A program made the translations under genes and the position numbers. A stretch of 64,000 nucleotides of DNA from Eledone cirrhosa (lineage: Eukaryota). Every line of letters begins with the position of its first letter. The stretch's first letter is position 1. Shown piece by piece: positions 15,605-16,632 of this stretch. The notes under the pieces are model-generated. The model ran no database searches and was not told where the DNA came from. It saw only the letters and a program-made list of their open reading frames with translations. The stretch is taken from NCBI GenBank assembly GCA_964016885.1, contig OZ024740.1:19468001-19532000 (forward strand). Reading direction: 5' to 3'.

Positions 15605-15687
15605 CATGCACACATATATATGCTCAGCCGTTAATATGCATAAGGAAAGTATACTTGCAGACGTTCAACCATCTGGCAGGAAGGTAT

Positions 15688-15730
15688 ACGTTGCTGACGA
15701 TAGCTAATAAGCTTGAAACTAGTACAGCGT
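15688..15730 (+). ncRNA. Minimal type I hammerhead ribozyme
   Basis: acgttg-CTGACGA-t-agct-aata-agct-t-GAAAC-TA-GTA-cagcgt: intact core, 6-bp stem I, palindromic ACTAGT stem III. Confidence 0.8.
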
Positions 15731-16114
15731 TCCTTTGTCAGTGTTGAACAAATGAGCAACGATGGTTGCTAGACACTACGGCTTAATACGGGATGTTTGT
15801 TTACAAACACACCGAGCATTATAATAAATGTTCGGTGAATCCATACGTACATATACATATGTGTGCATGTATGTATATATATATACATAATACTGTACGT
15901 CTGTATACATATATGTATGTACGTATACATACTTATATTTAAGTAACTGCCGTACTAAGAGTGAGAAATGAAATTTCGTTTCATTTTTTTCGCTTATCAT
16001 TTTCGGTACCCCGGCCGATTAACTCACTCGATATGCAAATTAGGCTGCTCAGCCGTTAATATGCATAAGGAAAGTATATACACTCAGACGTTCAACCATC
16101 TGGTAGGATGGTAT

Positions 16115-16157
16115 ACGTTGCTGACGATAGCTAATAAGCTTGAAACTAGTACAGCGT
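16115..16157 (+). ncRNA. Minimal type I hammerhead ribozyme (second unit)
   Basis: Identical motif to 15688-15730. Confidence 0.8.
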
Positions 16158-16295
16158 TCCTTTGTCAGTGTTGAACAAATGAGTAACGATGGTTGCTAGA
16201 CACTATACGGCTTAATTCGGGATGTTTGTTTACAAACACACCGAGCATTATAATAAATGTTCGGTGAATCCATACGTACATATATATATGTGTGC

Positions 16296-16370
<75 letters not shown>

Positions 16371-16555
16371 CTACTGTACGTCTGTATACATATATGTATG
16401 TACGTATACATACTTATATTTAAGTAACAGCCGTACTAAGAATGAGAAATGAAATTTCGTTTCATTTTTTCTGTTTAACGTTTTTCGGTTCCCCAGCCGA
16501 TTAACTCGCTCGATATGCAAATTAGGGTGCTCAGCCGTTAATATGCATAAGGAAA

Positions 16556-16632
<77 letters not shown>

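Follow-up and report, generated by a model that had tools for sequence, protein, structure and literature searches.

Non-LTR retrozymes of metazoans have been described from coral, mussel and axolotl as repeats of 150–450 bp with a GC content below 45% (Cervera and de la Peña, 2020; PMC7229834, cited here and below from its main text). According to the parts of a 2020 review that treat them (PMC7761336), retrozyme repeats are without a motif pointing to a helper, cleavage by most invertebrate retrozyme hammerhead ribozymes (HHRs) is efficient and goes with a stable helix III, and the amphibian ones need dimers. The text of a preprint covering vertebrates, insects and a coral argues that Xenopus retrozymes are derivatives of PLE pLTRs, and reports that only one of nine Xenopus retrozyme dimers cleaved in vitro, which we take as a caution (Li, Clavereau and Pollet, bioRxiv 10.64898/2026.07.22.740005, cited in part). 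The hallmarks of PLE insertions themselves are partial tandems, a copy that is inverted and 5'-truncated, and a tail at one of the ends (Craig et al., PMC8557442, cited in part); two internal RT start sites bound the tail, and both target strands are nicked and extended, a signature called unique to PLEs (Frangieh et al., PMC11167929). A purified anole PLE did not require HHR cleavage in vitro and used mainly uncleaved RNA as its template (PMC11167929).

Here we analysed a window of 64,000 nucleotides from the genome of the octopod Eledone cirrhosa (GCA_964016885.1, contig OZ024740.1, positions 19,468,001 to 19,532,000), in which a non-coding unit of 427 nt (GC 37%, no ORF of at least 120 aa) occurs at three insertions. 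At the first of these, unit 1 (15622–16046, +), unit 2 (16047–16528, +, with an internal (TA)n expansion at about 16280–16370) and the first 32 nt of unit 3 (16529–16560, +) lie between two (TA)n runs, at 15523–15604 and at 16557–16655, the latter common to the array and a neighbouring PLE. A short inverted-arm remnant on the minus strand, at 15605–15621 (unit ~232–250), runs into the left TA run. Unit 3 stops at an internal TATA, and the locus as a whole (15622–16560) is atypical, with internal TATA stretches ending both sides at neither of the two 3' end sites, A and B, defined below. The second insertion (24661–25157) belongs to a subfamily with an A-T pair in helix I and consists of a minus arm (24661–24886) and a plus arm (24887–25157) that ends at site B in (TA)n. 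The third (51651–53190) has the typical form, with a minus arm of 2.6 units ending at site A (51653–52749), a plus arm ending at site B (52750–53190), and both arm ends in (TA)n. The original prediction of a tandem repeat family holds for the ~427-nt unit; the array at 15622–16560, however, amounts to only 2.07 units, the second of them TA-expanded, and the family consists mainly of dispersed short insertions rather than long tandem arrays. In the loci examined, arrays span 1 to 24+ units in a tandem/inverted architecture with no LTR pair.

All seven hammerheads originally listed for the window were recovered as CTGACGA-N14-GAAA cores, at 15694 (+), 16121 (+), 24765 (−), 51900 (−), 52327 (−), 52746 (−) and 52888 (+), and the positions given for them refer to the helix-I edges of those motifs; the claimed periods of 427, 427 and 419 nt equal the measured core spacings. 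The core, the GTA triplet (ending at A15724 and A16151) and the palindromic ACTAGT of helix III are also as described, with ATTAGT in the copy at 52746. The more general pattern CTGANGA..GAAA has 17 matches in the window, compared with 2.05±1.58 in shuffled sequences, none of 100 shuffles reaching 17, and the family accounts for seven of these 17 matches. In the first hammerhead (15679–15734, +), helix I (15688–15693/15725–15730) is formed by the 6 bp of ACGTTG/CAGCGT, with a bulged GGTAT and an extra GGAA/TTCC pairing; the core CTGACGA starts at 15694 and GAAA at 15715, and cleavage is predicted after A15724. The helix II region reads T-AGC-TAATAA-GCT-T, giving three AGC/GCT pairs above a U·U at the base, and helix III is the palindromic AC-TA-GT, with 2 bp and a 2-nt loop. 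The second hammerhead (16106–16161, +) has an intact core and a predicted cleavage site after A16151, so that two consecutive intact HHRs, at 15694 and 16121, make the locus 'active' by the definition given in the text of the 2026 preprint (bioRxiv 10.64898/2026.07.22.740005).

The ribozyme had been called minimal, a label that does not fit because helices II and III and the bulged loop 1 are present, together with a 6-bp helix I. In the definitions quoted from PMC4209133, the minimal HHR of PLEs is without the helix III insert and has a long helix II and a short helix I; by the same definitions the retrozyme HHR is a canonical type I hammerhead. Its U·U at the base of helix II and 2-bp helix III resemble those of axolotl HHR_Amex2 in the main text of PMC7229834. 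A hammerhead-like string arisen by chance in an ordinary satellite, or in a repeat associated with microsatellites, could account for the outcome of an Rfam scan of the window, which gave no hammerhead family among the 150 of 219 matches listed (the matches listed being TA-repeat artefacts and a 3'-truncated U2), and for the weak fold of the motif, where the MFE structure recovers helices I and II, lacks helix III and gives the HHR region a z of only −1.2. Such a repeat would not be expected to keep the core nucleotides all in register, to covary in helix I, or to be dispersed with fixed 3' ends as these copies are, and we regard this explanation as extremely improbable. The motif is almost certainly a genuine hammerhead ribozyme, with cleavage predicted.

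Evidence for selection on the ribozyme comes from the helix-I pair 70:106, which in 165 copies is T·G (105), A-T (27), G·T (17), T-A (5) or another, non-pairing combination (11), and is thus paired in 154 of 165 copies through four pair types. The compensatory change proposed for helix I is therefore present in the larger sample, where it rests on this one pair; the seven window copies alone give no significant covariation (61 of 500 shuffles reach the score), and their T-A pair stems from the copy at 52746, which is cut at an inversion junction. The prediction had also named a core no better conserved than the rest of the unit as grounds for doubt, and the answer is divided. Among 20 copies chosen by an anchor outside the HHR, 34 of 1120 HHR sites (3.0%) depart from the majority, against 174 of 2441 adjacent sites (7.1%), and the catalytic core departs at 6 of 240 sites, an estimate that rests on this 20-copy sample; the tail region, at 11 of 319 (3.4%), is equally conserved. 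Between the old and young subfamilies, HHR positions 67–109 are identical at 39 of 43, 19 of these 43 having been fixed by the search pattern, and positions 110–225 at 86 of 133, with the HHR changes confined to pair 70:106, N7 and loop 2. Polymorphic columns number 3 of 56 in the HHR and 47 of 297 elsewhere (P 0.04), but with pattern-fixed columns removed the HHR count is 3 of 30 (P 0.59). The T·G and A-T subfamilies differ at an equal rate inside the HHR (2/56) and outside it (12/359), both HHR differences being the compensatory pair. With covariation and a moderately higher conservation of the HHR in favour, and the tail-region, column and subfamily counts against, selection on the HHR therefore appears likely, with modest support.

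The exact 26-nt core occurs 11,409 times in the 3.0-Gb genome (control 0), a relaxed core with N7 and helix II/loop 2 left free occurs 27,213 times (all 100 of the 100 among the matches listed belonging to the retrozyme family), and a 21-mer outside the HHR has 10,943 genomic copies. Several subfamilies are present, among them a younger one that is about 76% alike overall, shares the HHR and has units of 466–538 nt, a range that in the young-subfamily loci L196–L203 comes mostly from growth of a TA-rich segment predicted to fold as one long hairpin. The arrays of these loci are near-clonal, which suggests recent activity. When four sequencing runs were compared, the unit and the PLE end were very high-copy in one; short pieces related to the unit or PLE end were found in sequencing runs of two other organisms, and in one further run, presumed to be RNA, coverage was limited to 17049–17091 of the PLE.

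These properties support the original reading of the family as a non-LTR retrozyme: the unit is non-coding, 37% GC and highly self-paired in its predicted fold, carries one type I HHR and is present in tens of thousands of copies. Cleavage as dimers, which the original reading carried over from known retrozymes, need not be obligate here, given how most invertebrate retrozyme HHRs behave (PMC7761336). As with the retrozymes in the main text of PMC7229834, there is one canonical type I HHR per unit, dimers and multimers occur, copies number in the thousands, and the predicted circle is self-paired; the family differs from them in that units of the young subfamily reach 466–538 nt and in that it is known here from DNA alone. 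The natural monomer (15725–16151, +), 427 nt between two predicted cleavage sites, is predicted to fold as a circle at −128.4 kcal/mol with 67% of its bases paired, values calculated without shuffles. A fold z of −6.9 obtained for the unit was set aside, because the permuted unit used for it had 2 nt duplicated at the seam and the TA palindrome inflates the value.

Octamers of the type seen here are elements of snRNA-type promoters. The unit keeps one, ATGCAAAT, at 16033–16040 (+), intact in 105 of 116 units, as a candidate promoter element. An internal snRNA-type promoter is reported for newt satellite 2 in the cited part of PMC2220036, offering a parallel to the octamer, whose promoter role is a candidate one. 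Newt satellite 2 and the schistosome satellite HHR repeats are likewise tandem HHR repeats, of unrelated sequence.

To characterise the insertions we mapped arms in 94 loci (L002–L100, with the window's own locus and five overlapping duplicates dropped); these loci were found via the HHR, and arm lengths are therefore biased upward. With arms read in the HHR sense, two positions about 59 nt apart account for 137 of 162 non-edge 3' ends, namely site A (66 ends; unit ~317, ..TACTTATAT) and site B (71 ends; unit ~376, ..CCGTTTAT), and (TA)n follows 120 of the 137. In unit 1 of the window these sites lie after 15938 and after 15997, enclosing a 59-nt tail (15939–15997, +) whose borders may be RT start sites. 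The same 94 loci contain 50 inverted junctions. Among 48 non-edge inverted pairs, 16 have one end elsewhere and 32 can be classified, and of the latter 31 are A+B, one is A+A and none is B+B (binomial P 1.5e-8). The inner 5' ends are scattered, with 2 of 100 lying within 6 nt of the predicted cleavage site where about 3 are expected; apparent 5' pile-ups at unit 222–246 and 1–3 proved to be BLAST artefacts of the TA-rich segment and the unit seam.

Two 3' ends, a tail on one arm only, an inverted 5'-truncated arm and partial tandems are thus all present. PLE mobilisation, which the original prediction had taken over from other retrozymes, now has support in the anatomy of the insertions themselves (137 of 162 ends; 31 of 32 pairs A+B). 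Because the A/B ends and inverted arms match the published PLE signature, integration of the PLE type is well supported, and we hold it with high confidence. As in the EN+ PLEs of the Neptune clade, in the parts of PMC8557442 and PMC11167929 that describe them, there are partial tandems, an inverted 5'-truncated arm, a one-end tail, two RT start sites, AT-rich or microsatellite targets and an HHR upstream of the start sites; unlike those elements, the retrozyme has no ORF, its tail is 59–62 rather than 30–40 nt, and its HHR is canonical rather than minimal. The MRC1-type non-autonomous PLEs of Chlamys, as presented in the relevant part of PMC8557442, are similarly PLE-dependent and form multicopy head-to-tail insertions, but they have 3' sequence in common with their helpers and are mostly without HHRs, and in this the retrozyme differs. 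The main text of PMC7229834 describes neither fixed A/B 3' ends nor inverted arms nor (TA)n targeting for its retrozymes; the word 'cephalopod' has no occurrence there and no cephalopod family appears. The literature surveyed, mostly open papers with Dfam, Repbase and supplements outside its scope, yielded no cephalopod retrozyme and no A/B signature in any retrozyme. We conclude that this family is a new one within the non-LTR retrozymes, a class itself known, with unusually direct genomic evidence of PLE mobilisation.

Copies range from monomers to multimers and carry no RT/GIY-YIG ORF, and the family is therefore not an autonomous PLE; no RT/EN ORF was found in the unit or joined to the 5' ends of arms. 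The units could still be pieces of a pLTR, or copies truncated at the 5' end, from an autonomous PLE that has escaped notice, given that in the preprint text 24 of 57 Xenopus retrozyme families are similar to Repbase TEs, mostly PLE termini (bioRxiv 10.64898/2026.07.22.740005), and that about 150 loci were examined here. After site B, however, the sequence re-enters the unit with no ORF, the 5' flanks of 62 unpaired arms are without a common ORF-bearing upstream sequence (one tblastn match, 30% identity, E 3.5e-4), and subfamilies evolve as whole units. We consider this explanation very improbable, although the unit may ultimately have had a pLTR as its ancestor.

A candidate helper lies tail to tail with the first array, in the form of a 5'-truncated Neptune-type PLE (16653–17957, −). 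It comprises the end of an ORF (17097–17957, −) with a CX4CxxC linker and GIY-YIG, followed by a 3' UTR and a 60-nt tail, and carries its own HHR at ~16850–16893 (−), mutated at G12 in the window copy. The 3' end of the same PLE family, at its own site A, again lies tail to tail with the third insertion (51062–51613, +). We considered and rejected a reading in which this neighbour belongs to the retrozyme element: it is a PLE in its own right, with its tail towards that of the array. A first look gave 39,006 candidates for this PLE family, the scored copies being 90–94% identical with open frames of up to 1,257 aa, and its own HHR has 11,191 exact genomic copies; judged from these sequences the family is large and young. 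A tandem copy (L195) with a period of 4,423 bp has a 1,276-aa ORF containing DKSG, YVDD at 901 and CIDKKCITC (CX4CxxC) at 1150, ahead of a weak GIY-YIG match (Pfam E 0.016, below the cut-off); the Pfam search of this protein did not match the RT domain, and the named homologue that ranks best comes from Octopus vulgaris, an RT-domain protein (69%), in keeping with an octopod host. By domain order (RT, CX2-5CxxC linker, C-terminal GIY-YIG), the sequence places the neighbour among Neptune-type PLEs.

This PLE family targets (TA)n and ends at two sites, with A+B in 7 of 9 loci that have ends on both strands and one exception being a tail-to-tail arrangement. Its tail is 60 nt, against 59–60 nt in the retrozyme and 61–62 nt, in one case 68, in the young subfamily; another HHR/TA family in the window has a tail of 89–92 nt. 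No similarity was found between the unit and the pLTR of the adjacent PLE (score 25 against 21.6±2.5, for the adjacent family only), and derivation of the retrozyme from that pLTR, which we also considered, is unsupported. The PLE adjoins 5 of 29 other retrozyme loci, by our estimate roughly what common TA targets would give. Because sequence similarity is absent, a related PLE family is also present in the genome and the adjacent family was surveyed alone, we put the chance that it is the helper at about even at best. Like the Xenopus retrozymes in the preprint text, the family is non-autonomous and PLE-linked, forms mostly short arrays and co-occurs with Neptune; the Xenopus link is one of homology and co-occurrence, whereas here it is an insertion signature without homology to the candidate helper.

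The window holds several other repeats. A second HHR-bearing, TA-targeting family forms inverted arm pairs at 48654–48694(−)/49305–49345(+) and 61104–61144(−)/61234–61274(+), with two 3' ends 89–92 nt apart, and is probably another PLE or retrozyme. Further HHR-like families occur as an inverted pair with a GAAACGTTA core (27039–27110) and as CTGAAGA..GAAATATATA (63294–63330, +), the latter with two TA-flanked ends in other loci. A probable very old retrozyme relic lies at ~59900–60140 (−), recognised by its octamer context and TTTGTTT/ATTAT hairpins (E 0.001–0.004). An older, diverged PLE fragment (54344–54987, +) has 38–58% aa identity to the adjacent PLE family, and an abundant short TA-inserted repeat with internal inverted repeats (25222–25410, 28386–28590, 44880–45220, 50274–50420) is often a neighbour of retrozyme and PLE ends. 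At 1–10565 there are nested or tandem copies of a non-LTR retrotransposon type, with ORF1-like frames, an APE-RT ORF (6214–8766, −) and a tandem partial duplicate (1–3390). The remainder includes a 3'-truncated U2 snRNA copy (29036–29153, −), probably a retro-pseudogene; a SINE-like repeat of ~190 bp in about 15 copies, some of which form tandem pairs or triples (11190–14892, 18565–19545, 26240–30357, 48146); and long minisatellites at 31781–39703, 57518–58904, 43597–44626 and 12058–12927, with units of 66, 42, 30 and 55 bp.

The composition of the arrays bears on the template. The two-arm insertion L163 has about 10 units, its full units being 0–0.7% apart and one junction piece 2–3.6%, and its variants are array-wide in 11 cases, singletons in 6 and limited to a subset in 1. 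Across eight young-subfamily loci, units diverge by 1.4% inside an arm, by 0.6% from one arm to the other and by 3.2% from locus to locus, and variants are found in all units (17), in a subset (4) or singly (36). In the older subfamily the gap is smaller (5.3–5.7% within loci, 8.3% between). Rare variants are common to 0.46% of site pairs within loci and 0.036% between them, a 13-fold difference. Signs of local or higher-order duplication, or of mixed templates, are also seen: L164, at 24+ units, contains a higher-order repeat of 4 units, L062 has an ABAB structure and L171 has segmental copies, and the alternating variants at 51651–53190 indicate a non-clonal or locally duplicated array. No systematic offset-dimer pattern was found between arms, subset-shared rare variants being 7 same-arm, 6 same-rank and 6 offset. 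In L062:2837-4773 (C1:19314836-19316772), the B units of the ABAB array carry the helix-I mismatch G108A; a dimeric template skipping a weak ribozyme would fit, and so would a recent two-unit duplication.

The element might be PLE-mobilised from an uncleaved linear multimer, with the HHR incidental or acting elsewhere and arrays rebuilt by tandem duplication and gene conversion. HHR mutants were without effect on anole PLE insertion in vitro (PMC11167929), the preprint text favours local amplification (bioRxiv 10.64898/2026.07.22.740005), and the duplications in L164, L062 and L171 would be of this kind. With linear-only copying from an internal start, however, arrays could only shorten and would pass on the heterogeneity of their units, whereas young insertions with two arms and as many as ~10 units are clonal in their locus-specific variants and the compensatory pair is kept in the HHR; we judge this route unlikely. 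Less probable again is that the HHR cuts linear monomers and the RT multimerises them by jumping between monomer ends, with no circle. Jumping would likewise give a monomer bottleneck, and occasional mixed-unit insertions (51651–53190, L005) fit jumps between molecules, but scars would be expected at the junction, where truncations number 2 of 100 and insertions were found in none of 180 copies. Clonal units and a scarless HHR site therefore point to one monomer sequence read repeatedly per insertion, of which a circle is the simplest explanation, and a monomer bottleneck via a circle is moderately favoured.

Taken together, our data make it likely that the family is a non-autonomous retroelement, a non-LTR retrozyme with predicted self-cleavage and probable circles, copied by a PLE RT/GIY-YIG protein that may be that of the co-resident Neptune family. 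Loci with at least two HHRs would be transcribed, possibly from the octamer as promoter element, and cleavage after GUA would yield a ~427-nt monomer, which, going by the literature and the clonal arrays, would be ligated to a circle. A PLE protein would then nick both (TA)n strands and prime one at site A, the second at site B; the A/B end pattern is observed, and the enzymology is taken from PMC11167929. Each RT would cross the cleavage junction and read up to ~8 units per arm in our sample, and the two cDNAs would join at random 5' ends; read-through arms and random inner 5' joins are the observed pattern in the sample. Some arrays later enlarge by local duplication, as observed. In a more speculative form, which we think doubtful, a helper without homology copies the ribozyme-made circle as a dimeric Neptune RT/endonuclease, its subunits starting ~60 nt apart, one per strand, and both rolling round the same circle; the 60-nt spacing and TAT-ending start sites, rather than common sequence, would define the helper. 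If this holds, there would be direct genomic evidence that animal retrozymes retrotranspose by a rolling circle, and an enzyme-substrate pair open to testing would have been named.

A link between retrozymes and PLEs has been proposed since 2020 and was argued by homology in the 2026 preprint, while the route by which animal retrozymes return to DNA is still undemonstrated. The family described here joins a strict PLE tail signature, with one site per arm, to scarless read-through and to a young Neptune-type PLE with an intact ORF and a matching tail. With the published in vitro PLE priming assay, the questions of which RT, which template, and circle or line become a direct experiment. In addition, an octopod gains a large HHR family that has been active recently.
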